From contig JAYWIR010000001.1 in NCBI GenBank assembly GCA_036172245.1, positions 8,432,001 to 8,496,000 of the forward strand: a stretch of 64,000 bases of DNA. The letters are read 5' to 3'. The notes under the pieces are model-generated. The model worked only from the letters and a program-made list of their open reading frames with translations, was not told the DNA's origin and did not search any database. Positions 9,601-38,915 of this stretch are shown here, one piece after another. Within the stretch, counting starts at the first letter, position 1. Every line of letters begins with the position of its first letter. The position numbers and the translations under genes were made by a program. This DNA comes from Raillietiella orientalis. Taxonomy: Eukaryota.

Positions 9601-12600
9601 CGCTTTTCAAGTGTACCGGAAGAATCCCACCTTCCGCTTGCCCTGTTAGGAATCCGGAAACCCCCAGGGGGTGATTCCAGACTCGCCGCAGCCGATGTCC
9701 CTTGACCGGAATGCGAGCTGCAAGCGATGCCGACTTCAAGAGCTCAGCAACTGTCGAGGGCTCTTTCGGTGAAGGAAAGCATCGCCGTGGGGTCGTTGAG
9801 AAGAATGAAATGGCGAGGCCACCCTTCAAGAAGACGACCTGCTCGTCTGCATTCTCTCCAGTTCATATCGGTGTGCGCAGGCACTTGAAGCGACCGGATC
9901 CAGGCAGCTTCCCGATGCTCGCTATTTCTACGGGAATCAGCAGGACTGCTCCGCGTGATCGGATGCAGAATTCTAGAATTTTTTGCATCGAGTTCACAAA
10001 AGCAACGGGGAAGATCCCATCTCCTGGATGCACGGGAGCTGCCCTTCCCCTCATCTTTCCTCCTCACTGATCATTTAGCTCGGATCTGTGTCCGTCGTCA
10101 GCGACAATCATGGCGACGGCGGTCCGCAGTCCTCGAAGAACCTCGTGCCGCCCTCTCGAAAGCGCGGCGGCGGCGTTCAAGAGGGCGGACGGGCGGGCGA
10201 AAAGGAGTGGACCCCCGCGCGCTCCCCCTTTCGCTCTCGGGAATCCCAGCCCTCGGTTCACACAGTCCTCACTGGCCCTCTGGGAGCCGCGCCGAAAAGC
10301 CGGCTGACGGCGGTTCGAAAGAGCTGGAAGTTTTGGGGACTCTCGCCCGCCAGCTCGGCAGGCTGGTGTTCGGCGTCTGTCGAGGCCGGGCTGCCCGCTG
10401 GCCGCGCCTGCCAGACGGTCTTCAGCGACCGAGAGCAGGTGCACGCGGTCAATTCTCCCGGGGCAGATCCCTGGAAACTGAAGGCGGCATGCTGGGCTTC
10501 CCCGAGGAGGCAACTCCCGCGGTGCCGAGCGGAGGTCAGCTTCCTGGTGACCGTTGCTGTCGTCCAGTCGAAGACCGGGTGGTTCGGGTAGTCATCTGGA
10601 AATATCGGCTGTCGTTTTGCCTTCCAGACCCAGCAAGCTGAGCACACCTTTCCTACCAGATTGGCACCTCGTGATCGATGCCGTTCTGGTGGGTAGTTGA
10701 AGAACTTCCGTGTACCTAGCGAACGCTGGTAATCCTTCTACGTCTCATCGACTTCCGACACCTCGGATGCTCACAGCGGTGCAGAGACGCATCTCTGAAA
10801 GAAGCCCCCCAAAAACAGACTATTCTCCTCCCCAGTCTTCATATATTGAGAGCAGGGCGTGGCGACAAGACCTGCTGGAGATTCTTGGGCGTGAAAGGTC
10901 GGTTCTGAGCCTACGAATCGAACGGTGCAGAACTTCCCCTCGTGAATATCATTTGAGTAGGAACAGCAAAGTCGTTCCACAAGTCCTGGAAGATCTGTGG
11001 GTCATTCCCGTAAGGAACACGCAGGTCTCCGGTGAAGAACACGCTTTATACGCTGCATACGCTGCAACTGCAGCATCCGGAGCACGAAACGAGGCAGCTG
11101 GTGCCCAGACTTTGATCTTAGCCAACCGACTGAGAAGCGATGTTGGTCTCTCTTAGCCAAAGGAGAGGCGCGCCCATGGGCCAACCGTGGTAATGGATGG
11201 GGAGACGGCATGAGAGACGAAGTCGCGCCAAAGTGATGGCGTAAGGCGCCTCTCTGCCCTCTGAAAATGTTGTTGGAGGACTCAGGAAGGGTTCACTTCA
11301 TCCAAGGAGTGTCCTGGAAGCCGTACAGTACAGTCACAAGAAGGGATGCCATCAAGTCAGTGGGGACGGGCAGGAAAAGTGCCGGCTCGCCTTTCGGGCA
11401 CTTCCCTTTGCCTAGAGAACCCCGAGCCTTACAGGCAGGTTGCTTTCTGGTAGATCCAGAGTAAATCCAAGAAAAACCTGGTGAACTGACCCTCTGGCGA
11501 CAGATTCCCCGCCTGCGTGTCTGACGGAAGCGCTTCGAGAACACGTTCCGGAATGCCCTTCATCTCGGTAGACCGTCGCGGCAGCATCTTCCGATGCCGG
11601 CTGGATAGAAACCGGCGAGTGCTGTATCGCCACAGGCATGTCTCATAGCTCAGGGTGGCTGGATCGATTTCGGTGGTGGGACGGGCGCGCACAAAACGCA
11701 ATGGCGGTGAGCGTCTTCTGTGTGTTCTCGCTCCCCTTTTTTTCTGGCACGTCGTATGGAAATTGCGGGCAAGTTCCATGAGCGCCGGATCCAGGGATTT
11801 CAAGGTGGCCAGTGTGTACCTCACCGTCCCCTGCTGTGTCATGAGACGCCCCTCCCGTTCGCGTCGGCAACCGCTTCTGCGGAGACGCAGATGCGACCTT
11901 GGACGAATCGTTCCATGCGCGTCCAGAATTCTCAATCGCACACGCGACGAGGGCATCCGCCGTGGGCGCCTGGTGAGCAGATGACAGGTGCATGGTGAGC
12001 CCAGCCTTGTCCGATCCCGACGAGGCCGGACTCCCGTCAACCGGAGAAGACCTGCCGCCACTCGCGCGACCTCCATCCCTCGCGAAGATTCTCGGTCGTT
12101 CCTCACAAGCGATCTCTTGCAGGAAGGCTGTTTTCGTCACCGCCATGGGACTCCTGCATAAATGACTCCGCTTTCCGCCATAGCACCGACGTTCTTAAAG
12201 TGTGGTTCCTGTTCCAGGCTCCCTGGCTCTGCGCCTTCTCTACCACCACATCCCCCAGCAGATCATCAGCGGCAGATCAACCAAATTCATATGCGACTAC
12301 GATCTCGAGGCAGACACCCTCTACTCGGTGAAGTGGTACAAGGAAGATCAGGAGTTCTACCGATACGTCCCCAAAGAGATGCCCACGCCCCAGATTTTCA
12401 GGATGACCGGTATAGACATCGATGTACGTATAACGATGGAATCCGAAGCGAGAGGAGCGAGGGAATCGAAGGAACTGGGAAGAGGGGAGGGAGTCCACCC
12501 CCCCCATCCTTTCCTCGTTCGAAACCGGGAATTGATCCTGAGGAGTGCGGAAGCGGGGTGTTGGCAGGAAGCGCCGGTTTCCAGGACGGAACGAGAAGCG

Positions 12601-15600: not shown

Positions 15601-18600
15601 GCGCGCGCGCACGCCGTGGGCAATCCGGAAGAGCGACGCCTCCGTCCGCATCTCCCTTGGCGACTGAGAGCTCCGCTCCCTTCCTCTCCAAAAAAAAAAC
15701 GATCTGGGGGACGACTCCGGCATTCTCTCGCTTCCGTCTGCCCCCCTTCCCCCCTCCACTACCATCGGACGGGTCGCTGCCTCTTCCCCGGCTCCCCAAG
15801 ACACGCAGACGGGGACCCTCCGGACGAAGACGTTTTCATGACTGCCGGACCTCCGGAAACTCGGGGACGCGAGCAGCATCCCCGAATGTGGCGGCCTCCT
15901 TCGCTTCCCGGTGATCCCTTCGAAGCGCTCGGCGCGAAGCCTGAACCGCGGGAGTCTGTGGGACCGCTGCCCGCCGCCGCAGCGCGCGCGCCAGGTTCCG
16001 CCATTCCATTTTTAGCGCATCTCCCCTTTTCCTTCCTTCCTTTGCCCCTCCCTCCGCTTCCTGCGGAATAAAATATGCAGGGAATCAAGTAAAAGGAAGG
16101 ACACGCAAGGCGGTGATGAGATTAAGTTTTATTTATTACATTAGGGCTCAGGAAACGGGAATCAGGGAGTCTCCCTTTAGTCCGTGTCCGCGGCGGCGGC
16201 GGGCCCTGCGTCCGGTCGTGGGGATCAGGCGGCTGCGGCAGGTAAAGATGAACAGGACGGGGTGATTGAGAGTAGGCGAGGGTGAGGAGGAGATTCCCTC
16301 CCTCCCTCCCCTTCTCCCTCCAAATACACTCTTCATTCCCCCCTGGAGTCTCGCTCTGTCTGGCGAGCGGGACAGAGCATCTCGGAATGCCGGCGGAGGG
16401 GACTCGACTGCGCCTTCAGCGTGTCTGGTGCCGCGCGGGCGCACCCCCGTCCTTGCGGCGTTCCCCGGAATTCGAAGGCGCTGACCCCTTCCCTCCTTTT
16501 CGTCTTCCGTCCCTTCCTTCCTTCCTCCTGGGAACAGCTCCGAAGGAGGCGCTGCCACGAAGGGTGTCGCTCCCGGATGGGGACCGCGAGCGCTCCCGTG
16601 AGAAAAGGGGCCTCGTCAGGCTAGAGACGAGACCACGCGAGAATGCACGAACGCGCAGACCCTCCGAACGTCCCTTTCTAGGTTTCCGGACCAGGTTTCG
16701 GGAAGAACTCCAAAGCCTTGGCGCACGTCGCGTCGTGCGGACGAGAGGCCGTTGGCTCTTGAGAACTCGAAATCCGCTAGAGCAGGGCAAGAGCCCGGCA
16801 GGCGCATTTCCCGGGACTCAGGGAAGGCTGCAAGTCCCTCGAAAAGTTCCCCTCCCTTTCCGACTCCCCCCCCGCGCTGCCCCAACCTCCCCCAAGCCAG
16901 GAAACGCTGCCGCGTCGCGAACGAAGCGCGAGCTATCGGAAGCATCCGGCGCGCCGCCATTTCAACCCCTGCCGCTTCCCGAAAAGTCCGCAGCGCGGAC
17001 TCGCACGCACAAAGCGGCGAGGAACGTCCGACGGAGGGCGCGTGCGTCTCCTTCCATTCCCTCCGCCTCCCGGCCTCTCCTCGGTGGCCGGCTTGACTGG
17101 GGGCTCCGAGGACCCCCTCCTCCCTCCCGACTCGGCTGCTGCCCTGTCATGCGCTCCGGGAAAAGGCCTGGCGAGCACATCCGCTTACGGCTACTCCCGG
17201 TGCCATTTCATCGGTCTCTGGACCTGAGTGGCTGCCGAGCTGGTCCGCCGAGGGAGCGGTATGCATCTCCCTGGAGGACCGCGAGCTCCACTCTGCTTCC
17301 TCCCTTCCCAAGGAAAGGGCGGTCTTGAGGACGACCCCGGGTCATTCGCTCGCTTACTTTCCTTCCTCCCCCTCCGCTCCTGTCGGACGGGTCGCTGCCT
17401 CCCCCCGGCTCCCCCGAAGGCGGCTCGCCTCCCACCAGGCGCTTCGTTCTAGAATGCGGCACCAGGAAGGACGCTGCGACTTCCAGGATGGAAAGACGGT
17501 GTCAAGAGGACGGGGGGAGCTCCTGCTGGGCTTCCGCCGCTCCCATCGGTCCTCATATCTGCCCCTCGCCATCGAGCCGTCTCCGAGTGACTCCGGTAAG
17601 ACTAGTTGGGAGCCGCCTGCCTCGGCTGGAGGAGGTGACGAACGGGGTCCACGGGCCTGTGACATCCCTGGTGAGAAGATCCGAGGTCGCCTATTTCTCT
17701 GCTTCGCCTCGGCTCTGGGGCTTCCTTTTCTTTTGGTCGGAAGGCACGGAGATGCGTGAGGGACCCGCAGCGCGCCACAGGGAGCTCATCCACCGCCCCC
17801 TTCCGCGGTCAGTGGGCGTGGGGATCGACGCTGCAAGAATAGGGAAGGGGAGGCCCCTCTTCCTTCCCCATCCGTTCGAATCGTTCCCCGGTCTGGAGAG
17901 AGGAGTGGCTGCAGAGCACCTTCTTAGCTTCCCTTTCCTAGGTATTTATCCGCGTCCCTTGGGACTGTCTCTGTGGGAAAACCCAAGTGTGCAGATCTTC
18001 ACTCGTTCCTCCAGAGAAGGGACGGGGGCACGTCTCACCGCAGAGGAACGGACGCGCAGCATCCGCATGCTCAGAAGCGCGCGCACGTATCACGCGAAGG
18101 GAAGAAGAAAAAAAATGGTCGCCGAATGTTGTGGAGGAGTCTTGCGCGTTAACGGACAAGCGCCTGCAACGACGGCGACTCCCCGCCGACTGCGCCTCTG
18201 CCGCCCTCCGATCATGGACCGCCCCGACTGGCCGTGTGCTTCCCGGAGGACGGGGAACGAGGTCTTTCCGAGGTCCGTGGCGATCCTTCCTTCCCTTCCC
18301 TCTTTGGGCAAGTCTGGATCCCCCCCACGGAACCCAAACGGAGGGTCCCCGTTCGCCCTTCCAGGCCAGCAGCTCCATCTCCGCTCCCTCCACGTCATCC
18401 CCCGATCGGCTTCTTTCTCGTGGGGCCTGCGTTCCGGTCGGCATCCGTGAGCTTCGCTCTGCCCCCAGAGACGTCCTCCGTCCAGAAGGAGGGCGCTCTC
18501 TTCTGGGTCCTCTCCTTCGGAAGGGTTCATTGCTCCCGCCCCCATCCGGGGCCAGAATTCTCGCCGGAGTGCCCCGCCTCCCCGCCTGACCGAGATGCCC

Positions 18601-21600
18601 TTCGGACTTCTGCTCCCGATCCCAAAGGTCTCCATGAGAACCTCGGGGAGGCAAACTCGTGGCAGGGTAGGAGGAGGCAATGCCGTTTTGCCAGCTGCTC
18701 CAGGGGTCCTCGCCGGTGCGGCAGTGGGCGCTTCCGGGGGAGACCGCTTATCGACGCGTGCCCCTGTGAAATGCCGCCCCGTCGCCTGACCTCCACTTCC
18801 GGATCCGCTCGTCGGTCGACGGTGCCCTCCGGCGGTGGGTGGTCGACTCCTGCCGTTGCCTCGACTGACTCTGGTTCCTCATTGAGCCGGGGAGGTCGCT
18901 CGGCAGGAATGCAGGGCTTCCTTCCTGCGGGATGATGGTGTGTATGTAATAGGGAACACGTGTTCTGTACACGCAGGCACATTCATACAAACATGTACAT
19001 ACACGCATGAGTATGTGTGCATGTACGTGTGTGCCTGCGTATGCACTTGCGTGGGCGTACACGTGTGTGTGTTTACGTGGATATGCATATCGATATGTGT
19101 GTGTGCAGGTATACATACGTGTACATGAATGTCTGTATATTTGCTCGAACTGTTTCGATGGCTCCAGAAAATTCTGCCGGTGAGGTTCCAGACCCGAAAT
19201 TGCAGGCCGATCTCCTCCTCAAAGCATCTTCGTCTCCTAACGACGCTAGAAGTTCTTCCCCGCTTCTCGTATTTCACGAATTTCGGAGTCCGCGCTCATC
19301 CAGGAGAGTCCCAAGTTAATCTACCTTGTTTCACTTTGATCTGATAACGAAACGATAGATCAGCTCCACTTGACGTTTAGTCGTATCTCAAAGAGTCGAA
19401 CCGAACGGGAAAAAAACAAGGGAGGAGAGGGAGAGGCAGTATCCGCAGATGGTTGCGATGGCAGCGGCTTGATTTGGCCTCTTCCTCCTTGCGCTCTATC
19501 CGGCCATTTGTAAGGGAAGAGAGCACGGGCGAAAGCAGGAAGGCAGGGAGTGGAGGATCGTGCTATGCCCGGGCAGGTCATTAGGTTGTGGTCTCGGGTT
19601 CATTGCTTCCATCTTGGCGCAGAGTCAATACCCCCCTCCTTCCCTCCATCCTAGGTGGCACAGGGACGCGTTCACTCTTAAGGAGGCGTAAGGGTGCGAG
19701 GACTGACTCGCTCGCGCCTCTCCCAGCAGTTTCGGGGGGGGGGAAGGGGGAGTAGCGTCAAAGTTCAAAGTTCGAGAAGGTTCTGCGACCCGATCGGACT
19801 GCTGAAACACGCCGGAAGCGCTCCGGCCTTTGAAGGACGTCCACTGAGGTTGGGAATGTCGGCGGGCGGGAATTCCGTCTGCCGAAAGGTTCCCAAGCAA
19901 CCTCTTGCGGCTGTCAAGGATGACACTCTCAAAACAGGCGTGTCCTTGGGTCACAGCAAGCTTAGGCTTCCCGCCCGTTCTCTGATGCACGGTGGCACCG
20001 CAGCGGGAGAGAGAAGGGATTCCCCGTGACCAGTTCGGCCTCCCGGCGCCGCCTTCCAGACCCACTGCAGGAAGGGCATCCCTGCATCCATCCTGTCAGG
20101 ACGAGTAGCTCCGTAGCATCCGCGGATGCGGACCAGAAACGGGAGTTGAGGAACAATTCGCCTCTCCGACTTAGGGAGACATGACGTCTAGATCGGAGGT
20201 GGAGTGGTCATGCCCAACGCTGGGCAGCATTGTACGTGATGTAGGAGTAAGCAAAGGAGTACAACGGCTTCATTTTTTATAACTGGAAGGAATGCCGAAG
20301 GGCACCGATCCCTTGATTTTTGGAAAAACCCCTGAGGGTTAACTTCCAGTCCAGGCCGGTCAACAGGGGCATCCAGGGAGAAGGGGTTCCAGTTTCCACG
20401 AGTGTCGCACCCAAAGCCTACAGGCCAACCAGAGCGTCATCTCGCCGGGACGAACTCAAAACACATGACGTACCTGCCTCCCCCTTCCCTTCTCGGCATC
20501 GATCCTTCCCCGGGTGGGATTCGAACCCGCGACGCTTGGTGCCACGTGTGTAGTCTGCAGCTGCACAGCTGCAGATGCGGGTCAGGGATCCAGAAAATGC
20601 GCTAGGAGTCACCTGCAACCCTCCAACTATCTCCTAACAGCCCCTGTCCACCTAAGCTTGACCTCTCCCTCGTGCAGCGTCCACGGTGGTACTCGGTATA
20701 GGCAGAGAGTCCGCGATTGCAGCTCTTCGATCGCTGAATATGCAACTCCAGCCTCGTTGCCAAGAGAGGCAGCCACATAAGGTATCAGTCTGACCAAGGA
20801 AGTGACTCAAGGAAAATGGTAGATGGAGGCTCCCCACCCCCTTGAGCTGGCCAATCCCGGAAACAGACTTTTAAAACTACGCCCAGATCGAATGCTCCGG
20901 AATGAAGGCCGAGTCATCGCCCCCGAGATCACAAGTCTTCCCGTGCGAGGACAAGGCAGCGGAACGAGGAGCATTTGGAGGAAAACGGGAAGAAAACGAG
21001 GAGGCAGCATCCCTCCCAATCTCCGGCAAAGGGACGCCCGCTCCGCTGTCGGGATCCCTGTCGGTCTAGGGCGCGAAGAATGGCGACCCCTCGCGAGGAA
21101 ACTGCGAAGAGGATGGTAAGCATCAGCGTGTAGCAAAGCCGGGGGTGGCAAATATCTTGGTTCATCACCGCCCAGGATGAACAACTGCCAGAGAGTCTTC
21201 GGCAGGGCAGCAAGATGGCAGAAAACGTGGGAGAAGATGCCCCTACATCCGCACTTTCCAGCATTTATTGTACGCACGAAAATGGACCATTCAGCAAGGA
21301 CAGAACCGATGTTTGAGTGGCCAGTCCCCTTTAACTCAAAAAAAAATCTGTCCCATCCCTTCCTGAAAAACGGAAAGGGGATTGCCTCTTCGGAGGGGAG
21401 GCGTCTCCGCAAATTCGAAGCATCGGGCCCCGGCAGTTCCTAAGTAGTCCGGGAGCTCTACGAAGATGGCGAAAGGACGGATCTGCGAGAGCCGCTCTGT
21501 CTCTCAAGAGCGGAGCGACTCCCCGCGTGCCGGTAGGAGACGACGGCGTGAACCCTGCGGCGTGCATCCTCAGTTCTTGCGGTCCCGGTGATTGCGTTTC

Positions 21601-24600
21601 CTCGGTCTTGAGTCATCTGCGGGCTCAAGTGGACGGACCAAATTAGATCGAACACCGGAGAGCCCCTTGCCAGGAGACAGGGGCGAGTGAAATCCTTCTC
21701 GAGTAGGCGGCGAGGTAACGAGAGAAAGTACGGTGGCAGATGACCTTCCAGAAGATTCCCGCAACGGGGGGTGGTCTGTCCCGCCTGCTTCTTGGTCGCC
21801 GAGAGAGACCCGCGTCGTCCTCTAGAGGCGAGAGCGGGACCTTTCGTGAGAGGTGCGCACGTTACAGCGGCCGTCGCCAGCTTGCCGCAACTGAGAAGTG
21901 GGGGAGGGAGGGGGGCTATCCCCACGAAAATCTGGCTGCCACCCAGGAGCCATGCTGGAGCTCACGGGCTGCGCTCGGTCCTCTCGTTAGCGGAAGCTTG
22001 GGTGAGTGGATCCAGTCAAGACGTGCAAACACGGGAAGGACGGATGCGTCTGGGTCTGCGTTATCGAATGTCGATTCCGAATTCGGGAAAACCTGGAACC
22101 GCCTGTGCAGCGTTCTCACGGATTCATGTGGGAAAGACTGCTTTCCATCCCGGGAGGAGGAATAGTTCGTTCCCTTGTTTGTCTCGTTAATTAAGTTGGT
22201 TCCCACAAGATACTGCTGACAAGATGACCCCTCGCGATTGGATTCCTGTACAAGAACGTTCCGTGACCAGCCTGTTGCACCTGAGGTCAAGTCAGCTGCC
22301 TTCGTGGGCACAGCGCTTTTTTTCGTGCATCACAGCAAACGACAGCACTTGCTATCCGTTTCCAAGGGAACCTCCGTAGAAAGTTGCTCGAGCTGTTCGG
22401 CTTTTCGGCGAGCCGGAGCTGCAACGCAGCCACCTTGGAAACTTTCGCGCGATCCCGTATCCGGGAATCAGATTGTATTCTCTGTATGCCTTGCAAGCTG
22501 CGTCCACTCCCCCCTCCCTCGACCCTCCTGTGGAACGGGTGACCAAGCAACACGTCGCGGTGCCGACGGCGTTCGGGGAGTCCAGACCAGGCCGTATCGG
22601 TTTGCGGCCCGCGTCACCGAAGCGTGTGAGGACACGCCCCGGACCGCATGACCTCCGGGATGCTCCCAATGGCGGCGATCCCTTCCTCCCCGTGGGGAGC
22701 ACTTGAGGTCTCACAGATCGTTGATCGATCCATCCGTCCAGTGGAGGCTTCGAGGGATCTTTCGCAAGCGAATCCGCGGGAAGGATACGAGTCGGAGGCG
22801 CCAGAAGAGCTCCCATGGCACTTCTTCAGTCGCTGGGTTAGCACCTTTCAACCGGAATCAAAAGAATCGGGAGAGGACTGCCTGGAAAGATTGGTAACCG
22901 ATGGCCTCCACCCCGACGATTCCTCCTTCCACCCAACCCTGGATTGCTGCCTCGGAAAGAAAAGAGAGAGTCGTCCCACTGCACATCTTTCGAGCACCTC
23001 TTCCTGCACCTCTTCCCTTTCCCTAGAACGCCGCATCCGTTTGGGAGCTTTAAAGGTTCGCAGACATCGCAGAGGGAGCAAACCGCAGAGGGATATCCCG
23101 TGTCTCGCTGTGGAACCCTCAGGACCCTGGAGACCAAGGAACGGAGACGTATTGAGAGATCCCTCCCTCGGTGCAAAGCTGGGCGCCCAGGAACACCTGA
23201 CGCTATCGCGGTGCGCGTGCGAGAAGCAACACGGGCACCGTGGTGAGCAACCACATCCTGTTCCCGAGGACTAGGAAAAAATACAGTGGCCTTGCTATGG
23301 AGGGTGGGGATGGATCGAGACCTTCCAATCGCTTGCTAGCACCCCCTCATCAAGGCATACTGTGAAAATGCGCCAGCATCCTGCGCAGCTTCGACAGTTC
23401 CCACTGGCGATGGTTTATTGGTCACGGCAGTCGCCACAGATCTCCTGATGGTTCAGCCAGAACTTATGACGGTGGGGAGGCACGCCTGAACCGACAGCGA
23501 AGACGAGAAACCTGGAGACACGAGCAGCACCAGGCGGAACGGAGGGAACGGCCCGCTCCAGATGACCAGCTGACTCCGTGGCAAGAAGGCGTCGGTGCTC
23601 CGAAGGTCAAGGACCGGCACCCGAGGTTTTTCAAGGTAGCTTCGAGGGGATAGCGGGGACAGCCGTCCCCCACGTTTCCGTCATGCGAGACCTCTACCTG
23701 GAAACCTCCAAGCCAACGGCGATCCAGGTTCCTCTTCTCTGGTTCGCCAAACACTCCAGACCGTTCGCCTAGGGGACTCACGAAGTTCTTCGACGCACCA
23801 CCCAGCGAGGGTGCGTGTCAACTCTTCAGAAGGTACCCCGGAGGGATTGGATCACCCTGTGGAATCCAGGAAGAGCTCCGGAGGAAGGAGACCATTCCTC
23901 TCTTGAGCTTGGGAGGCAACTCCGGAGGGAACTGCCTCCCCTCTCGTTCTCTCCGGCGGACCCCCTGGAGGGGGAGACACTCCCCGTTTCTTCTCCGGAG
24001 GGAACCCGGAAAGGATCCGCTCCTGAAATTTCTTTTCCGTAAGGGCCCCTCGAAGGGGCGTTTCCCAATTTCTATGAAGGACGCAGTTTCCAAAGGGAGC
24101 AGCGCGCTTCTGACACTCTGGAGAGGCGACCACACAGGGGGGTATGATATGAAGCAGCCCCCTGACACGGCTCCGTTTTCACGACAGAAGAAGGAATGCG
24201 AAGGGAACGGGTCCCCTTCGATTCCTGGAAGGACCCGGGAGGCTCCAACTCGCAATCCCGGCCACTCAACGGGGGCATCCGGCTTCCAGCTTCCACCGGC
24301 GCCGCCTCACCCGAATAGACAACCAGCGCGATCTTGCGGGGGGAACTGGAAACCCACGACGCAACTCCCATTCTTCTGGTGTCGAGCCTCGGCGTGAGGA
24401 TTCGAACCCGCGCGACGCCTGGCACCACGCGCGGAGGCCGCCGCCACAGGGCCGCGCATCGGCAGGCGCGTGGCTACGGTCATCCATCTCTGATCTTCCC
24501 CACCTCTGAAGAGGCGCTCGACCTGCCGCATGGGTTCCCCGGGCTGCCCGCTTAGCGCTGTGACGCGGGGCTCGCCGCTGCCGCGAGGAGGAACGAAATC

Positions 24601-27600
24601 ATTCGGCGCCCCGAAACCCACGGCGACGCGAACGGTCGGTCCTCCTCACTGGCCAGCCACTCCGCCGCTTTGTCGCTGCCGCTTGCCTTTCACCAGAAGC
24701 GCCGGGGCCGGTCTGCTGCCGAGCTGGCGTCCGCCCATCCGCCCGTGCCTTTCCGACAACACGGCGTTCCGCGTCCGCATAGGAAGTCACCTTCGATACC
24801 GTCTTTGTCAAAATTCTAGACGCTTCTCCGGTTGCTAGCGAGCTAGAGAAAGAACAGAAGAAAAAAAACTCTCCTCAGGAGAGTGGTGAGAGGTGATGTT
24901 GGACTCCCAGAAGGGAAAGCAATCGCAGTGATCCAGGGGTATCGCGATGGATCTCCGTGCGTAAAGTGAACTCCATGAAGAAATGGCTCTGATGTTGAAA
25001 CCCTGCTTTTCTTTCATTTCAGGTGCAGTCTTCAACAGACAAAGAAATTGTTTTGAACAGTTCCAACCTGTTCACGTCAGGAAAGTACCGTTGCGAGGTA
25101 TCGGCCGAAGCTCCCTCTTTCAATACCGTCTCTTACGTAGCAGATGTTGAAGTAGTAGGTGAGTCTTCTGGTGGCGGCTTCACGCCGTGGTTTCGGCCAA
25201 GCCGTCGGGTCCGGCGCAGTGCCCCAGAGCTGCCCATCGATGACAGCGTTTGGAGACCAAGGAAACGACCTACTGGGAGGCCTAAGGGCGCTTTTTTTCC
25301 TTTTTCATGGGGAGACCGTTCCTACATCTCGACCGGCCGGTGTCGAAAACGGAATTCAACCTTCGTGTTCCTTGCGCGGGGCCATGGCATTCCCGCGTTT
25401 CTGAGGGCAGCTCCCGAACCCTGATGGTTCAGTCCTCGGCCAACCACCGACCCCATCCCACCTTACCCTTTGTCTGCGAGGCCCGTTTGATCTCCCCCCC
25501 TTCCCAGGGGAAAATGCGACGCGGCACACCTTCGAGAACATGGCTGGAAGTGGAAGGCGGAGTTCGATGGGTCCCTCCTGTTGCAAGCCTGCGTCTCCCT
25601 TGCCTTATGGGGCGTGCTCCTCTCAGGGAACACGAAAAAAAAACTCCAGCGCCACGACATCTATTCCAGTGGACGCCTGCGCCGTGTTAAAGGGTGCTAA
25701 CTGCTCCAGTCTTTCGATATTGAGTGAGAGCTCTTGGTATATACAAGAGCAACATCATCCATGTTGCCGTTTGCGTTTCTTTTTCTCCCTCCAAAAATGG
25801 CGGCGGGCTGGAGGGTTCTCAGGTTTCAAGAACCTTTCAGTTTGTGGTGATGTCTGGAAATACTACTGGAGAAAGCGCCCAAGAGAAGCAGTGTCGGTAA
25901 GGTCGCGGTCGACAGTCTGGCGAGCGGGCTGTTTGATAGGGAAGCCATGGATGGCCCCGGGTCTCAGGCAGTAGGAGGTCGATTCCCGGCCTTCATCCTT
26001 TGAGCAAGGCGGGAACTCGGCTGACCCAGCGCCAGCAGTTTTGGACCGCCTGGAAAGAAATCCATCGAAGCGCCTTTGAAGGGTCGTTGATGTCTCTCGT
26101 TCGACTGCCCAGGCTGCGGAAGGGGGAAGAGAGAAGGCGAAACCAGTGCACGTAAGCGGTGGCGACTGAGATGGCATCCCGCTCCGTCTTCACAAAAGGG
26201 ATGGGAGGAGATCCTTTCCTTTCGCTTCTCTTGAGCGAAAGGAAAGGATCCACCAAAAAAGCGGAGAATCTTTACTCGGAGGAACACGGAAGACGTGACC
26301 GAACCCTTTTCCTTTCCCGGTTTCCTTCGGAGAAGAAAACAAGCGGATCTCCCCGGAGGTCCCTCCGGAGAGAATGAGGAAGGAGATTCTTTTCGGGGTT
26401 CCCCTTCGGAGACAACCAGGGTGGAAGTGTGATCCCCCTCCTTTCCGGAAGGAATCCCTACCCAGGCGTGATAGGAACAGACTGAACAGAGTCCTTCCTG
26501 GATTCATGGGACAGATCCCTCTTGAGGTACCCCTATCTTGAAGAAGGTAGCGACGGTGTTCCCCCCGCGGCACGGAGAGAAGGACGAGTGCTCGTCCACA
26601 CTGGGGATAGTGGCGCTGCCGAAGCGGACGTCTCCTCCGACCCCCTCCAGCGGCAGCTGCGGGACGCAGGCCACTTCCGGAAAATCATCCTCCGTTCCCT
26701 TCCTCGCGCATCCCTTCCACGCAGAGGAGGCGCGGCCACGACGACGGTGGTGCTTCCGCGGTTTCCCGGCCGTCGCGGGACGGAACCGCCCACCTCTCCT
26801 GGAGAGAGAGGGTGCAGGAGAGAGGTCACGCGTGCCGGCGGCGCCGGTGGACCCCGAACACTTCCGGAGGAGACAACCGGCCCTCGTCCGGGACGGAAGG
26901 ACGGCCCAGGAGTTCCCACTCTGCCGCCGCCCAGCCGATTGGGTCGGAGACTGGATCCGAGGCGAAGGACGCTTTTCAAGGACGTTCGCCTCCTCCCCTG
27001 AGTCCCGCGCCACGTCTCGCTGCATCCGAAAGCGTCCCGCCGGATCTCTCATCGTTTCCAGGATCGAGGCGTCTGAGAGACTGGCTTCAAGCGCCCAGTT
27101 CCCGAGACGCAGCGCGCCGGCCGGGGAGGAGAAAGGGAGGATGGCTCAGCGAAGGGCAGGAGAGGAGAGCGCCGCGGGTGGATCGCCAGCAGCGTCCCGG
27201 TTTCACCTCTCAGTTTGCGTTTTTCCTGCTGCCTTCTTCTCCCGGCTTAGCCTTCTCGGGAGCCATGAAGGTTCCTGGAGGCACCCTGAAATGGGAAGTG
27301 GAGGGGGGACAGGTTCGGTCTTCGGACAAAGAGACTGTGGCTCTGCCCTGACGGCCGACAGCCCCGCGAGCCCCAGCGCGCCGACTCTTGAGGGTGCCAA
27401 GACGAGTGCGAAACCGATCGATGACTCACCGCTGGGCGCAGCCCTACGCCATCCGGGCGAGTCGAAGAGGGGGGGTGGACCTTTCCTTCCCTCAGCTGTC
27501 CCCGTCACCCGTGAGGCGGACCATCCTGTGGCGCCTCGACAGGAGGCGTTGGAAGAACTTTGCGCTCGGCTGCCCGCCCGTTTCCTTGCGGGGACACCGT

Positions 27601-30600
27601 CCGGTCGGGGTGGAGAAGCCCCCAGGTACTCTCGTTTTCGGGAGGCTCTCCTTCAGGAGACCAGGTTGCTCTCCTTCGGATGACGCCGGGAGCGGGTGAG
27701 CTGCGCGAGGAAGCTTGGGAGGAACCGAGAAGGCGGAGGAGGGTTTTCACCTCCTTGCAAACGGGCAGGACGCCCGCCAGAAGGGCACCTTCCCCTGCCC
27801 TCCCCGTGAACTGGCACTCGCTGGCGCTGTCCGCACGTCCTCCACCTTCCTGCAATCTCACGACGGTGCGCATCCTGCGGACGGCGTCCCGACCCTCATG
27901 CCCGGCGGATGTGACTCATCGGCGAGGAACGGGACCGAAGGAAAAGCGAATCCCGGCTTGGGTAGGCTTCCGGAGCGCCTGCACGGAGCTCCGGCCGTCA
28001 GGGAGGCGCTCCCAAGAGGGGCGGGGTAGGGAGCGAACGAAGGGGGCGTCCCTTCCTCGCTCTCGTCGCCCGCCGGGGCGGAGGCCGAGACGGGGGAGGA
28101 GCCGCGAAACGAAAACATCCCGTGCGGTTCAGCCGAGGCACGTCCGCCCAGGACTCCGAGCATCTCCCGGACTCCCCGAAAGGCTGTGCCCATAAATTCA
28201 GACGCTCAATTTGAATCCCTGCCTCCCGCTGTTGAGGACTTGAATTTCAATGATTTCTGCAAACTCCGGCGCGCCCGAAGCGACCGCCGCGCTCGGGGGC
28301 ACGCAGCTTTCCAGATATTCGCCCGCCGCCGTAATGGATGGATGCGTCCGTCTCCCCCCTTTTTCCTCCTTTTATTCTGTACCCGAAAGACAGCCGTGGC
28401 ATCGACACGGGGAAAAATGGCGTCTGCTTTTGGCTGGCGAATTCGAATCCCGCGATTTGCCCTGCTCGGGACGCGCGCGCATCTGAGCTCGCGATCCCTC
28501 GGGTCGCCAGGATGACGGCGCACAAGCACCTGGGCATCGTCAGCGCCCCCTGGATGAAGGAGGGCGAACTTGCCTTTCGGTTCCCGCGAGCGCAGGGCAA
28601 ACGTCAAAGGTGTGGTCCTGGTCCGTGTCCCCCATTTCTCTGGTCAGCGTCGGCGGTCGTGTGGTGGCGGCCTCCCAGGCCTCCCTCGTGGTGCCAGGCG
28701 TCGCACGGGTTCGAATCCCCACGCCGAGGATCGACACCAGAAGAATGGGAGTTGCGTCGTGGGTTTCCAGTTCCCCCCGCAAGATCGCGCTGGTTGTCTA
28801 TTCGGGTGAGGCGGCGCCGGTGGAAGCTGGAAGCCGGATGCCCCCGTTGAGTGGCCGGGATTGCGAGTTGGAGCCTCCCGGGTCCTTCCAGGAATCGAAG
28901 GGGACCCGTTCCCTTCGCATTCCTTCTTCTGTCGTGAAAACGGAGCCGTGTCAGGGGGCTGCTTCATATCATACCCCCCTGTGTGGTCGCCTCTCCAGAG
29001 TGTCAGAAGCGCGCTGCTCCCTTTGGAAACTGCGTCCTTCATAGAAATTGGGAAACGCCCCTTCGAGGGGCCCTTACGGAAAAGAAATTTCAGGAGCGGA
29101 TCCTTTCCGGGTTCCCTCCGGAGAAGAAACGGGGAGTGTCTCCCCCTCCAGGGGGTCCGCCGGAGAGAACGAGAGGGGAGGCAGTTCCCTCCGGAGTTGC
29201 CTCCCAAGCTCAAGAGAGGAATGGTCTCCTTCCTCCGGAGCTCTTCCTGGATTCCACAGGGTGATCCAATCCCTCCGGGGTACCTTCTGAAGAGTTGACA
29301 CGCACCCTCGCTGGGTGGTGCGTCGAAGAACTTCGTGAGTCCCCTAGGCGAACGGTTCTGGAGTGTTTGGCGAACCAGAAAAAAATATCTGGGATGAAAA
29401 CAGGGAAGCAGAAAAGGACCCAAAAGGATGTCCACCATCCGACAGTGAGGAAATCTTCTCGTGAGATTGCTGCTGGCCTTCGGAAAAAAAAAAGATAGAA
29501 AAAATAGGAAAAAAAAAATCGATTTGGTTCGACCCTGCGGGGGCGTATTCGAGATTCCCTTCGGAAACGCCACGCTCTACCTGCTAATGATCCTAGGGCA
29601 ATCATTCCTCGCAGATAATGCGTGAAAGATAGGAGATCGTGGCGTACCCTTCGTTCCCCACAGCGAGCTCTTATCTATCACGCATTTCGGGACGTCTCCC
29701 CGCCACGCCCTCTTCTATCTCTCGTTCGGGAGAAATCTCGTCTACTTCGGTAGCGATTCCGGTCTCCCGTGGAACAATCCCGTGGTTTTCCTAAGGGAAG
29801 GACTGCCATGCTCCTGCATCTTGGGGACGCCATCCCCGCCCGCGTTGGATTCTCTTTCCGCCTTCCCGCCATCGGAAGAACTGGTCACTCTTTGCGACAG
29901 CTCCAAGCGTCGCGGGCGTGGCGTGGCAGCAACACGCCCGCCCGGCTATAACCTGGGCTTTCTGCTTCCGCCCTCCTCCGGTTTTCAACATTCCCTGCTC
30001 GCGGAAGGGTCGCAGGCCGGGTCACTAACGTCCCGGTTCGAGGACATCGGTGATCCCTCTCGACCGAAATTCGGGACCTCCGCGAGAGTTCCGGTTTTCA
30101 GACCTCTCCCCCTCCCTTCGACCCCGATGCGGTTTCGCGCGGCGCGACCGTGGAGATCAATGCTGTTCCCGTTGTTTTCCTCGAAACCTCGGGCGCTCTC
30201 CAGAGCAGAGACCTACGAGGTTCTCTTTGATCAGCGTCTCCTCCTCGGTTCTCGGCGGTGAAATCAGCATCCCAAGCGACCGATGACCTCCTTAAGAGGT
30301 TCGCGTTTGCACCCACAAAAAGCCCAAGGCTCCCCTCATGGATGATCAATTCCCCCTCCTTGCTTCCCTACTTTTTCGGAGACACGCTCTCCGAAAGCAT
30401 CTAGGGGCTTTCCTTCCTTCCTTGTCAAGGATCACCCCCGGATCCGCGACACGCCACCACAGATGGCATTGTGGAAGGCAACCAGGAATGCGCTAGTAGG
30501 AATTTCTTCTCCGGAGGGAACCCGCGAGGGAACTGCTCCTGTTCACTTCCCTGAAGAGAACACCGAAGGGACGCTTCAGAAATTCAGAAGGGGCGCTGCT

Positions 30601-33600
30601 TTCCCGGATGGATCGATCGCTCTCGCTTCCTTGCACTCTCTGGAGAGGTGGCGACGCACCTGCTTAGTCAGCACGACTTGGAGGGTCTGCCCCCGGAATA
30701 GGGGGGTCCGCTCCTTCAGTATCTGGAGAGGTGCCTTAAGCACCTACCCCATCTGAACCAGAGGGGTCCCTTCGGTGTGAGGGGTCCAATCTCCGTTGCA
30801 CAACCGGAAGGGAAATTCCTCACTCCTTGATTCCTGGAAGGACCCGAAGGTCGACTCCCATTGTTCAGACCTTCATCGGGGATCTCCGGTTTTAACCGCT
30901 ACCGCTGCCGCACCCGAATGTTTGTAGGCCAACCAGCGCCATCTTGAAGGAGGAGCTCGGAACCCACGGCGCACTCGGAGTCGATTCTTGCAGAGTATTC
31001 GAACCCGCGACTCATGGTACCACGCGCTGAAGCTGTAACCACAAAGCCTCCGACGCGAGCTCGAAGCGCCGTTCTCCGCCTCATAGCCTCTGCGGAAGAA
31101 CCTTCGATAACCTTCGGGGATGGCGGGGCAGCAGGAGTCGTTCAGTCCTTTTTTTTTTTTTTTGCGGTGGTACCGCTCTTCTCCCCCTTCCCTGATTCTC
31201 CTCTCGTTCCAACAAACCCGGAATTGAGCTGGAAGTGGAGCCGTGGCGCCAAAGGTGGAGCGACGATCCTCCAGCCCCACGACTGGCCGACCATGAGGCA
31301 TCGCCCACCGTGAGCGCCACCGGGACTCGTGGCTTCGTCTCGAGCGAGGCCGAAGGTGCGAGGATCCCCCACAGGGGAAGAACGCCCTCGGGCGAGAGGG
31401 TCGCCCAGCTCCGAGGCGCCATCCTTCCCGCACGGAACGTTCCTCTCGAGGTACACCGTCGAAGACATCAGGAGCTCCGGCTGAACTTCTCCAGGGAGGC
31501 GGCTGCATGCCGGGAGACGTCCGAGATCAGCCGGATGACGGGGAGGCAGAAGGGAGAGTTGGACCGCATCACGAACGACCTGGACCGGAGGAGGAAGGGG
31601 GCGGAGAAGCTGCGCTCCAGAGCGTGCGGCAGACGGACGCCGCGAAGGGATCCGTCTTTGACAAGCAGCTGCGAGCCCCCAGGAAGGAGCTCTCGGGGCA
31701 GGAGGGGAAGCTGCGGAGATCGGAGGGGGAGTGGCAGCCGGAGGCGGGGAACCTGCACGCCACCCTGGAACCTGCAGCAGGCGCAGAACGAGAGGAACGC
31801 CAAGACGCTGAGGGAGCTGAGCCGGGAGAGAGGATCTGGTAGCATCCAAAGGCTGCTCCCGGTGGACCGATCTGTGCCTTGGGGCTTGCAGGAGGAGCGC
31901 GTCGTCGGAGCCTCGGCTGCTTCCCCCTGCGTGCAGAGAGAGGGAGACCCATACGTCCGCGTGAGCGCCTTTCCCCGAGGTCGGATGGAGACCCGAGCCG
32001 CAGAGGGATGCCGCACGCGTCCCAGGTCTCCCTCCGCGGCCGGACGTTCCTTGCTGCGCCTTCCTTCCTTGAAACATCCACCCATGGACCGCGGAAACAG
32101 AAGGGCACTCACTCCTCGGAGGGTGAAGGAACTGTAATTAGGACGCTGCGCGAAGGTTCAAGTTTCTCGCCGCAGTGGAGGCTGCGGGTCCAGTTCGCGG
32201 CGAGGGGTAAGCGGCTGCATCCACGAGAACGCGGGTGGAACTGCCCCGCGCAGCAGCACTCAGCGCGGCGAGCGGAAGAGCCGGTGCCAGCATTCGAAGG
32301 GATCGCCAGAAATCGCGCAGTACTTCCCCCCCCCCCCCACCTCCCGCGAGACATCGGTCGTCACTGCGTGCAGCGAAGGAACCAGAAGGTCAGAACACGA
32401 GGCGCCAGAGCCAACCGCGAACCCCGTGGTAGCTGGCGCGTCGCTCGCGGTATGACAGGCGGAGCGGGGCTGAGGCGAGCGCGCCATCGTCTCCCCCTCA
32501 CCCACCCTGAGAATTGGGGCGAGACCAGGGTTTTTTCCGGAGGGGTCTGTCCCGGCCACTTCTCGCTTCTTCCCCGGAAGGAGCCCGGAAATGATCCGCT
32601 CCTGGTTTCCTCCTCTGAAGAAGACCCCGAAGGGATGCTACCCAATTTCTCTGAAGGGAGCAGCACGCTTCTTATGCTCTGGAGGGACAATCCGCGAAGG
32701 GGGTATTAACCATCCCCATGTCACGACCCCCTTTTCGCAACCGGGAGGGGACCCCGAAGGGCCCTCTGATTCCTGGAAGAGAACAAGAGGGTCCACTGCC
32801 AATCCAGGCCACTCGGCGGAGATTTCCGGGTTACGCGAGTACTGCATCCGAAGCCAACCAGCGTTCATCTTGCGGGAGGAACTCGAACTCACGATGCACC
32901 CCCATTCCTCGGCCCTTACCCGTCTGGGATTCGAACCCGAGACGCTTGGTGCCACGAACGGAGGCCGCAGCCGCACGGCCACCGACGCGGGAGGGACGCA
33001 CGGGACTTGGGCTCGCTACACGGCTCCTGTCCTCTCGGGGATTTCCTCTTCTCGCAGGCTTTACCGCGGTCACCATTCGAGAGATGGAAGGAAGAAGCTC
33101 CTCCAGAAATCGCATCCACCCTCTCTCTCACCGCCAAGAACCCCTTCCGAGCCCCGGGTGCGCTTCTGAGGAATGGTACCTGGGATTTCGCGCCGCAGCT
33201 TCTCTCAGGAGCCACCGCTTCCCGAGAAGACGCGTGTGTCCTCCTCGCCCGCGTCGGAGACTCCGGGAGCGCCGACCGCTGGAGGGCAGCGGGGACCTGA
33301 GGGAGAGGGAAGCCCCCGGCTGCGCATCGGAGAGGAGACCGCGAGGATCCCTGCCTTCCCGGCAGGCGACCCGCCAGTGCGCCACTCCAGCCGCCCCCCT
33401 GTTGTTTCCGGAGCGGGGGAGCCAAGAAGAAAGCGTGGTCAAACCACCACAGGGCGAGGAGACGTCTCTCATGGGGGTTCAGGCAGGGAGGCAGCCAGGA
33501 GAGGACCAGCTCGAGTCCCGGGAGGGGAGAAAAAATCGACGCATCCTGCAAAGAGTCGGAGAGGATGGAGACCCGCGAGCCAAGTCGGGTCAGACACGGA

Positions 33601-36600
33601 GGTCTTACAACCCTGGCGACCACTCCGACGGGCGGCGCCGAAGGATCTGTCTGATATCGCTCCTCCGCTCGTCCAGGACTGGCGGAGCCCCCTGCATGGC
33701 TCTAGGACGCTTCCGGAAGGGACACCGCCCGTTCCCTGACCTCCTCCCTGCCGCGAAGCGCCAGGCCGCTGCTTCGCATGGGAGGAGGGAACTCTGGGCC
33801 GGCGCGGGGATGGAGCTCGGACCAGAGCCGTACTCGGGTCCGAGGCAGCGACAGCGCCTCCCCTCATGCTCACTCGCCGCCCGGAGGCAGCAAGACCGGG
33901 GGCGGGGAGGGAAATCCAAGCGACCCCTAGGCCACTCAGGGGTGTGCACCCCGCATTTCAGAGGACACCAAGCCCTTTTGCCTCCTTGCATGAGGTGAAG
34001 GGAGGGAGCAGACCCTTCGCCGACAGAAGGGGGAGTAAGAAGGGCCCTCCCAAGATCTCGAGCGACCCGAGCGACCGAGCGCACATCCTGCCCGCTGAGG
34101 GACCCCGGATGACCCCAGGCGAGTCTTTGGAAGGAACCAGTCCGGGGTGGCTCGGGGCAGTCGCGGGACCGGCATGCTACCCCCCCCCCCCTCCCTCACA
34201 CTTCACTTCCTCGCCGGCGCACCACCTCGCACCGGGATCCTCTATCTGCTCCCGCCTTTGCCGGTCAGCTCCAGTGCTGGCTGCGAGGAAGGACTCCCCG
34301 ATCCGCCCTCAGGCTTCCGGAGAGAAAGAAGGAGCGGTCCGAACCGCCCTTGTTCCATTTCTTCTGCGTCTCGAAAGTTTTGACCGGAGCGGGAAGGTCG
34401 CTGGTGCTCTCCTCCTCTTCCCCTCCCTTCCCCCCTCCTCCGAGATGAGACCTGCGAGCTCGCTCGAAGCATCTTTTAGGCGCTTCCACCCCCCGCCTCT
34501 TGGTGCGGGGAAGGATCAGTGATCCTCCCGCGCTTCCCGCTGTTTCGCGCGCAGCTTCCCGCAAGGCGGGTGCGGCCCTCATCATCGGGAGAGAGCCATC
34601 ATCTCGGAACAGAAGGGGGGGGGAGGGAAGAACGCTGTTGCGCGCCCGGCGAGGGCTTCTCTCCAGGCGCGCTCCCTCGGAGACACGGAGCGCTCTACCT
34701 ACCCCCTTCTCCCGGCATTCCCTCGCCTGCTTTTGTCCGGAGAACGGGAGAGGGCCGAAGGAGCCCGACCTGTCCTCCGACCGGACGATCCCGGTCCATC
34801 TCTCTGGAGGTGCCTCCTGGAAATGGCAGGAAAATTCTCTTTTGTGTGTTCGCAGAGCTCCCGGAGTCCCCGCCGGAGATCACCGGGATGAAGGAATTCT
34901 ACGAGGCTGGGGAGCTGCTGCAGGCCAACTGCACCTCGCGGGGTTCCTACCCGAACGTCTCCATCTTCTGGTACATCAACGATAGCGAGGTGAGACTGTC
35001 CTCCTCCTCCTCCCAGCAGCAGAGATAGGGGGGGAAGGAGGAATGGGAAGGAAGAAGGGGAAATGGGAAGGAAGGAATCCCAGGAATGAGCCGATTCCCC
35101 GGGATACCCTAAAAAATCTTCGTTCTCCTCCTTGAGCGGGCAGCGCCATCTCCCGCTACTCTTCGGTCCTCCAAGGCCACCCGGAGCGGAGCTCCGGACT
35201 CCAGAAGCAAGAGGGAAGTCTCTGCGTCCTCTCTGAATCCGAGAAAATCTTCGGCATCCCGAAGACGTAAGGGTCCGCGGGTCCTGAGGGAGAGGAAGGG
35301 TTGCCTGCAGGCTATTCGGTCGCAGGCAAACGATGTGGTCCCCAAGAAGCCTCGTCCGTGCATGGACACTTTCACGTGTTCCCCTCCTTCTCCGCATCTT
35401 CCTCCTCCTTCTGATCATCATCTTTCACTCTTCCTCCTCCTTTTCTTTGTGATCATCATCATCATCCAGAAAATTCCATCGCCATCTCCTTCATCTTCCT
35501 GATCATCATATTCTTCCTCCTCCTCTTCTTCTTCTTCATCTTTCCCTCCTTCTCCCTTCTCCTCCTCCTCCTTTTGTTGCTCACCATCAATCTTCGCTGT
35601 CCTTCTCATCTTCCATTCCTCCTCTTCCTTCTGCTCTTCTTCGTCTTCCTGATCAGCATCATCCTCTCGTGGAAGGGAACTGAGGGTTTCGACACAGCAG
35701 AAGAGCAGCAGCTGCAGAAGCAGCCGGAAGGAGAAGGGAAAGATGGACCCTCGTTGCAGGCTCATGGGCTCCTGGGCTTGGAGGGGAGGAGGCAGAGAAA
35801 TCGAATTGCTCTCGTGGAGACCTGATCTTTCCGCATGGCGCGGTTCTTGACTTCCGATGCCCTTCCACCCTTAACCCCTCCGTCGCCGCTCCTCCTGCTG
35901 CATCCATGGAAGGCGGGAGGGAAGAAAGAGAGAATCCGAGAAGAAAGGGGGGACCTCGGCCTCCCTCAATCCTCCCGCTCTTGTTGCTCTTCCGCAGCAC
36001 CGCAACCTCGAGTTCCCCTTGGAGAGAGGAGAAGGAAAAGCACCCTCCTCGGTAGCGCCCGCCTCCCCCCTCCCCTCGGGAAGCAGCAATCCCCAACAGC
36101 CGTCGCAGTCGCAATTGAGGAGGAAGGCGCATGCCGCGGCTCCGAGGGCGTCTTCCTGTCTGGCGACTTAATTTCAAACGGAAGGCGCCGGTGCGGATGC
36201 GGTGGACTTCTGGTAATGCGGAGGGCAGCAATGGCATCATCGCACCCCACTCCGCCACACCACGCGGCGACAAGAATGACCTTCCTCTTCCCCTCCACGA
36301 AACCGCGGGCGTCTTTCTCGCGTCACGCTGAAGCGCCTGGCGGCAGCATCGCCTCGGTTCCTGAGCCCGCGAGCTGGCAGCTCCTGAACACTGCGCGTCC
36401 CTTCCCGCCCGCAGGGGAAGACTAGGTTTGACCCGGGCGCGAACGCCCGGGCGCTCCAGATGCCGTTGTCCCGCCCTGCTCACATCTCCTCCAGCGCCCA
36501 CGCTGAGACGGGTAGACCTGGGCGAGAACGGACGCATCCGGGGGTGTCCCCCTCTGCTCCTCCGTCAGCTGTCCATTTCTTTGCAGATCGCAGACGCCCA

Positions 36601-38342: not shown

Positions 38343-38586
38343 CCCGGTTCCATTGTTGCGGCCGCGGGGCGTCCCCCGGTTCCATTGTTGCGGCCGCGGG
38401 GCGTCCCCCGGTTCCATTGTTGCGGCCGCGGGGCGCTCCCCGGTTCCATCGTTGCGACCGCGGGGCGCCCCCCGATTCCATTGTTGCAACAGCGGGGCGC
38501 TCCCTGGTTCCATTGTTGCGGCCGCGGGGCGTCCCCCGGTTCCATTGTTGCGGCCGCGGGGCGCTCCCCGGTTCCATTGTTGCGGC
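38343..38586. repeat. 32-bp minisatellite, about 7.5 copies
   Basis: Unit cccggttccattgttgcggccgcggggcg(t/c)(c/t)c repeated head-to-tail with a few substitutions. Confidence 0.95.
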
Positions 38587-38863: not shown

Positions 38864-38915
38864 ACGTGCGCGCGCGCGCGCGCGCGCGCGCGTGTGTGTG
38901 TGTGCGCGTGTGTGT
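38864..38915. repeat. (CG)n(TG)n alternating purine-pyrimidine microsatellite
   Basis: About 12 CG units followed by TG units. Confidence 0.95.

Follow-up and report, generated by a model that had tools for sequence, protein, structure and literature searches.

Here, we describe a pair of inverted, near-identical copies of a short interspersed nuclear element (SINE)-like repeat in Raillietiella orientalis, located in introns 2 and 3 of a nerve-wiring gene that resembles the Beaten path (Beat) immunoglobulin (Ig) family. The analysis covers a window of 64 kb (64,000 nucleotides (nt), positions 8,432,001 to 8,496,000 of contig JAYWIR010000001.1, GenBank assembly GCA_036172245.1), and all coordinates below refer to this window. 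The two copies, hereafter arm 1 and arm 2, bracket exon 3 of the gene and match without a single substitution over their body and 3' part, while their tRNA-like heads and their tails differ. Based on the combined interpretation of these alignments, we consider it probable that two separately inserted old copies were overwritten in their interior by non-allelic gene conversion, once or repeatedly.

Inverted arms with an identical core and diverged ends

A repeat finder reports one inverted pair at the locus, 23760-24429 and 28687-29356, which is 670 nt long, encloses 4257 nt and is given as 100% complementary after rounding. In a BLAST comparison of arm against arm, 699 of 706 positions are identical, with 2 gaps, over 23735-24439 / 29382-28678. 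Both results confirm an earlier note on this DNA, which had placed a near-identical inverted pair here and had described its core as identical and its few differences as lying near the ends. Base-by-base alignment bears out this description as well and resolves the boundaries to the nucleotide. The tract 23738-24385 / 28731-29379 contains no substitution and a single 1-nt indel, a T at 23760/29356. Outside the tract the arms mismatch at 24386, 24397, 24411, 24430 and 24432 and then by indels on the head side, and on the other side the tails diverge from 23737/29380, with differences at 7 of 12 positions. Within the head the divergence increases outwards, from 3 of 44 positions in the proximal part (24386-24429) to 6 of 30 positions plus indels of 8, 4 and 2 nt in the distal part (24430-24459). 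A MAFFT-based count of the entire head yields 73 identical positions of 84 and 13 gap columns, i.e., 11 mismatches and 87% identity.

The difference in divergence between head and tract is sharp (0/648 versus 11/84; Fisher p = 2.5e-11), and the probability of 648 clean sites at the divergence of the head is about 3e-40. The longest exact run shared by the arms measures 626 nt, and of the 28 pairs of family copies theirs is the only one with a long run, the remaining 27 reaching 29 nt at most. A self-comparison of the whole window at a minimum of 85% identity retrieved the arm pair as the sole long near-identical repeat, the runner-up being 232 nt long at 87%. Homology stops with the element: when 400 nt of flanking sequence on either side were included, the alignment remained confined to 23722-24455 / 29395-28653, and the flanks of the two arms are thus unrelated. 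The anatomy of the pair, the boundaries of its tract, the uneven divergence along the arms and the unrelated flanks are direct outcomes of these alignments. As the flanks are unrelated and the homology ends at the ends of the element, the arms represent two insertions and not a segmental inverted duplication.

Two structural candidates were discarded. A segmental inverted duplication was rejected on the grounds of the unrelated flanks, and a large transposon with 0.7-kb terminal inverted repeats was rejected because the spacer holds an exon of the gene, in the right order and phase, and no transposase-like open reading frame (ORF).

Table 1 Features of the arms, the repeat family and the Beat-like gene in the window
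Feature	Position	Strand	Description
Arm 1	23730..24459	SINE strand -, antisense to gene	Full-length copy in intron 2; nhmmer model positions 2-720, E 2.5e-169
Arm 2	28647..29382	SINE strand +, sense to gene	Full-length copy in intron 3; nhmmer model positions 7-722, E 4.2e-166
Identity tract, arm 1	23738..24385		SINE body and 3' part, 648 nt; base-by-base alignment
Identity tract, arm 2	28731..29379		649 nt, one extra T at 29356; base-by-base alignment
Diverged tRNA-like head, arm 1	24386..24459	-	Carries B box / T-arm
Diverged tRNA-like head, arm 2	28647..28730	+	Extra 8 nt at 28675-28682, which read as part of a short tandem duplication
Purine-rich 3' tail, arm 1	23726..23737	-	GAGAAGAGGAAC on SINE strand
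A-rich 3' tail, arm 2	29380..29391	+	GAAAAAAATATC
Old family fragment in spacer	26310..26507	+, orientation as arm 2	nhmmer model positions 137-332, E 1.3e-11; BLAST 66-70%
Other near-full family copies (n=6)	near 4327-5076, 12871-13537, 19947-20583, 30250-31060, 32358-32992, 44646-45374		nhmmer
Exon 2	12218..12423	+	N-terminal half of Ig1, CDYDLE...LYSVKWYK motif
Exon 3	25023..25158	+	136 nt; C-terminal half of Ig domain 1, GKYRCEVSAEAPSF strand with second cysteine
Exon 4	34857..34989	+	Start of Ig2
Further exon	near 36620-36780	+	

The arms belong to a tRNA-headed, SINE-like repeat family of about 728 nt, for which an nhmmer model of 728 positions, built from the window's own copies, detected 8 near-full copies and 1 fragment in the window. 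The six other near-full copies share 63-71% identity with the arms (BLAST), in agreement with the earlier note, which had called them clearly more diverged, and the arms are each other's closest relatives among the window copies. One terminus of the repeat shows a clear B box / T-arm, which reads GGTTCGAATCC on the strand of the element and has a GCGGG-loop-CCCGC stem in copy 44703, and the opposite end is a short purine-rich tail that includes A7 in arm 2. The 8 largest ORFs across arms and spacer contain no Pfam family. Because of the tRNA-like T-arm/B box, the purine-rich tail and the ORFs without Pfam family, SINE is a reasonable label for the repeat, with an A box and target-site duplications as its unproven elements. 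The A box of an RNA polymerase III promoter was not identified in the repeat head, ARAGORN predicted no tRNA in the repeat, and no Rfam family reached its gathering score on it. The single full-length tRNA-type match was weak and below threshold (tRNA-Sec RF01852 on the head of arm 2; 12.5 bits versus a gathering score of 47, E 7.5).

Seven of the eight near-full copies, arm 1 among them, run antisense to the Beat-like gene, and the sense direction is taken only by arm 2 and by the fragment at 26310-26507. Inside the repeat body of the arms (window 23900-24060), CTCCGGAGGGAAC occurs again 73 nt apart, where Tandem Repeats Finder reports no array, and no tandem repeats were found in the entire 23-30 kb region. 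Metagenome scans with an arm-specific 34-mer and a family-conserved 24-mer returned zero matches each.

Probable gene conversion and competing explanations of the identity

Along the repeat, the arms reverse the conservation pattern of their family. Among the other copies, conservation peaks in the head (about 69-92% in local alignments; mean 0.80 for the four fullest copies) and is lower in the core (about 73-81%, mean 0.76), whereas identity between the arms amounts to 87% in the head and 100% in the core. Judged from these alignments, the heads of the arms thus resemble each other about as closely as those of any pair of family copies, in contrast to the identical cores. This is the pattern that homogenisation by ectopic recombination, i.e., gene conversion, predicts. 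The homogenisation that the earlier note had considered is therefore supported, in the form of gene conversion. The arm cores show a degree of decay similar to that of the other copies: they match a leave-one-out family consensus at 80.1% of positions, as compared to 74.0-81.5% for the four other best-aligned copies, and identity between arms and other copies (0.773) equals that among the other copies (0.764) closely. That the core is as decayed as other copies suggests, without being decisive, an old sequence that was recently copied at the DNA level.

We infer the mechanism and timing of this conversion as follows. Two copies of an old and abundant SINE-like repeat would have inserted separately, in opposite orientation, into introns 2 and 3 at a distance of about 4.2 kb. 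Later, one or more events of non-allelic (intrachromosomal) gene conversion would have copied the body and 3' part between the arms, presumably by homology-directed repair of a break in one copy with the nearby copy as template and no crossover. Towards the head, the 648-nt converted tract would stop inside the element, and towards the tail it would run out with the homology; for this reason heads, tails and flanks would retain their older, separate histories. The stepwise divergence of 0%, 7% and 20% from the tract through the proximal to the distal head points to several events that ended at different positions, or to a single event that acted on two copies of one subfamily; the first option would amount to concerted evolution, by analogy with palindrome arms. 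Gene conversion between Alu elements acts within about 10 kb and declines with distance (Aleshin and Zhi 2010, as cited in PMC8230782), and the proximity of the arms would fit this range.

Several considerations weigh against gene conversion. Homologous recombination is inefficient between sequences with about 77-87% identity. A single late event would be rare between copies that had fully diverged, and the early and repeated conversion that would be needed instead is unproven. Since sequences 13-23% apart recombine inefficiently, a conversion that began while the copies were similar and has recurred since is favoured. Furthermore, a neutrally drifting master copy would leave its young copies just as far from the old consensus, so that the decay of the core is not decisive, and the arms share derived states in the proximal head (e.g., TCGGC--GTG, a 2-nt insertion) that a young subfamily explains equally well. 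A signal of GC-biased conversion is not clear in the arm core, with 18 weak-to-strong (W>S) versus 32 strong-to-weak (S>W) changes, which is within the range of the other copies. Finally, the whole analysis concerns one 64-kb sequence, in which the state before conversion is never seen.

The proposal of an alternative hypothesis, that the arms are fresh and independent insertions of an active subfamily that came to lie 4.2 kb apart by chance, bases on the same shared states. Derived states common to the arms are absent from the six other copies, a master copy subject to drift would account for the 20% by which the arms depart from the old consensus, and arm 2 carries A7 in its tail, with TCTGG as a possible 5-nt repeat next to both of its ends. 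The differences between the heads would then date from insertion itself, for instance if the reverse transcriptase switched template to the RNA of another SINE, or if the arms came from two source genes whose heads differed. However, one source should give identical heads, as these comprise the best-conserved promoter part, and the heads of the arms differ at 9 positions and by three indels; the tails, too, differ at 7 of 12 positions. No perfect target-site duplication was found at either arm, and the best score was matched by shuffled controls in 1335 of 2000 cases for arm 1 and in 181 of 2000 for arm 2. An 11-mer candidate seen by eye at arm 1 (9 of 11 matching) did not exceed shuffled controls, and neither did the two candidates at arm 2, a 9/10 match about 50 nt past the tail and the TCTGG repeat. 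The differing tails and the lack of a perfect target-site duplication together argue against insertions so fresh that 648 nt have remained unchanged. In addition, all six other copies in the window are old, and two young copies only 4 kb apart by chance would require a very large young subfamily. We therefore regard fresh insertion as unlikely, and the recent local re-insertion that the earlier note had offered as a simpler alternative fits poorly with heads that are 13% different and carry indels next to a core with zero substitutions.

An exact identity across 626 nt also invites the suspicion of an assembly or polishing artefact, in which the true copies differ and consensus building or gap-filling made their cores identical. 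This explanation is improbable. The window contains no N, and such identity is seen in no other repeat of the window. The spacer is unique and non-palindromic and holds a correctly placed and oriented exon, which excludes a fold-back read artefact. Moreover, copies as different as the rest of the family are not confusable by an assembler or polisher, so that near-identity of the true copies would be required in any case.

Exon 3 between the arms: possible RNA stem and inversion

The plus strand of the window encodes a Beat-like protein with two Ig domains, and the exons for both domains were recovered in order by tblastn of 5 homologues. Among solved structures, the exon 2 peptide matches Beaten path Vc (E 1.4e-9) and Vb (E 8.6e-9) best. 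Ten of 14 candidate homologues match this peptide at E ≤ 0.001; they are arthropod two-Ig proteins, eight of which are 175-291 amino acids long and the remaining two 386 and 404, and one of them (P0008) matches Beat Vc at E 9.4e-26. The exon 3 peptide alone yielded no homologue at E ≤ 0.001 among 23 candidates and no Pfam family, yet it aligned to all 5 arthropod homologues tried (tblastn), out of the 10 found. The predicted two-Ig ectodomain, with an Ig1 that is most like Beat proteins, assigns the gene to the Beat Ig family.

Exon 3 has a polypyrimidine tract with a cag acceptor and a GTGAGT donor; together with the homologue alignments, these signals corroborate the 136-nt exon that the earlier note had proposed here, and the placement of the SINE-like arms in the introns on both sides of it stands likewise. 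The exon begins in phase 0 and stops 1 nt into a codon, and its skipping therefore shifts the reading frame. It is flanked by long introns, intron 2 of 12,599 nt (12424-25022) and intron 3 of 9,698 nt (25159-34856). Upstream, 563 nt separate the exon from the end of arm 1; downstream, 3488 nt separate it from the start of arm 2. Besides exon 3, tblastn of the 5 homologues detected no Beat-like coding sequence between the arms on either strand.

It is intriguing to propose that the pre-mRNA could form a near-perfect stem of about 700 bp that loops out exon 3. The duplex between the arms is predicted at -1624.8 kcal/mol with 697 pairs, far beyond the single-arm folds of about -300 for either arm. 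If this hairpin acts, selection might have kept the stem perfect and conversion might be merely the means of its upkeep. Possible activities include back-splicing to a 136-nt circular RNA (circRNA), frame-shifting exon skipping that lowers Beat-like output, hyper-editing by ADAR, or processing into small interfering RNA (siRNA) by Dicer-2. The duplex energy, the canonical splice sites of exon 3 and its long flanking introns (12.6 and 9.7 kb) are in accordance with this proposal, for which Drosophila laccase2 provides a precedent (PMC4617980). The arrangement described for laccase2 is also present here: the repeats in the two introns around the exon are inverted and complementary, and the exon has canonical splice sites. 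However, many exons between complementary repeats fail to circularise according to the account in PMC4617980. Arm 2 lies 3.5 kb from exon 3, the diverged heads and tails reveal no pressure for pairing of the whole element, and neutral conversion accounts for the identity without selection. We thus give little credence to selection on the stem, which in any case is an overlay on conversion and not an alternative origin of the identity. Equally conjectural, and in our view a long shot, is the far-reaching idea that an intronic stem of about 650 bp, kept by recurrent conversion, constitutes a transposon-built RNA switch in an arthropod Beat gene.

The perfect arms could also act at the level of DNA. 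Non-allelic homologous recombination can act on perfect inverted repeats of this size (about 650 bp), and crossovers have intermediates in common with conversion. Recombination between the arms might accordingly flip the 4.2-kb spacer and turn the gene off in some cells or individuals, as the earlier note had suggested with its invertible cassette, and rare inversions accompany conversion in the palindromes described in PMC3723533. However, this suggestion found no support and we find it scarcely credible. None of the 8 largest spacer and arm ORFs contains a Pfam family, which argues against a recombinase, and the minus strand of the spacer offers no alternative Beat-like exon. Exon 3 is present in this sequence in its working orientation only, and a flip would destroy an essential half of Ig1, i.e., it would simply be a deleterious mutation.

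Other repeats and compositional features were observed along the gene and in the remainder of the window. Intron 2 contains a second, older inverted repeat of another family (14588-14819 / 17291-17519; 232 nt at 87% identity). Its halves are about 2.5 kb apart and enclose related pieces, such as 15612-15805. A GC-rich tandem array of a 32-nt unit (7.6 copies, 90% matches) occupies 38343-38586 and is followed by a (GC)12 run at 38868-38892. The GC content is mostly 0.54-0.65 up to about 46 kb, with two bins near 0.49 at 38-42 kb, and falls abruptly to 0.28-0.41 from about 48 kb to the end of the window; nhmmer detected no copy of the SINE-like family in this AT-rich part.

Relation to known systems and implications

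Gene conversion between the arms would resemble that between neighbouring Alu elements (Kass et al. 1995; Roy et al. 2000; Aleshin and Zhi 2010, cited in PMC8230782), which likewise concerns SINEs a few kb apart and proceeds without crossover. Partial tracts yield hybrid elements in Alu conversion, as reported in PMC8230782. Unlike Alu, the arthropod family studied here is about 728 nt long, its tract of 648 nt spans about 90% of the element without a substitution, and its inverted partners straddle a coding exon. The human Y palindrome P6 is comparable as it also consists of inverted repeats with a unique spacer that are near-identical through intrachromosomal conversion (PMC3723533); palindrome arms are kept more than 99.9% identical by conversion, with rare inversions, according to the same source. 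In contrast, the arms of those palindromes are tens to hundreds of kb in size, of duplication origin and gene-carrying, while the present pair consists of two separately inserted mobile elements of 0.7 kb.

With respect to RNA, the closest parallel is Drosophila laccase2 (Kramer et al. 2015, PMC4617980). There, introns of more than 9 kb on both sides of a single exon contain inverted copies of one transposon family that are able to base-pair. The inverted DNAREP1_DM repeats of laccase2 are described there as 69-75% identical and necessary for circularisation, with about 40-100 nt being sufficient. Unlike in the locus analysed here, these repeats are close to the exon and circularisation was established by experiment; our arms are 99-100% identical, one of them is 3.5 kb off, and the 136-nt exon between them is described from sequence. 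Long inverted repeats that are transcribed into hairpins are also known from the hairpin RNA (hpRNA) endo-siRNA loci of Drosophila (PMC10317233). However, known hpRNAs hit specific genes by homology, whereas the present arms derive from a decayed SINE that differs by about 23% from its relatives.

These comparisons point to the pair as a new example of a known process and to an ordinary by-product of DNA repair, most likely a neutral one. Gene conversion at this locus would provide a readable conversion tract between copies of a mobile element, the end of which can be placed to the base within the repeat and for which the unconverted head serves as an internal clock. Such conversion distorts the divergence-based dating of repeats, as by its divergence this pair would count as brand new, in spite of its old-looking ends. 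It also creates long perfect inverted repeats in genes, with inversions and double-stranded RNA as possible consequences. An RNA switch, if true, would set the balance between functional mRNA and the 136-nt circRNA or a frameshifted, exon-skipped form, or would feed Dicer-2 or ADAR. If exon 3 turns out to be back-spliced or skipped in RNA data, the locus would represent a natural counterpart of laccase2; otherwise, it would exemplify the ordinary upkeep of a genome.

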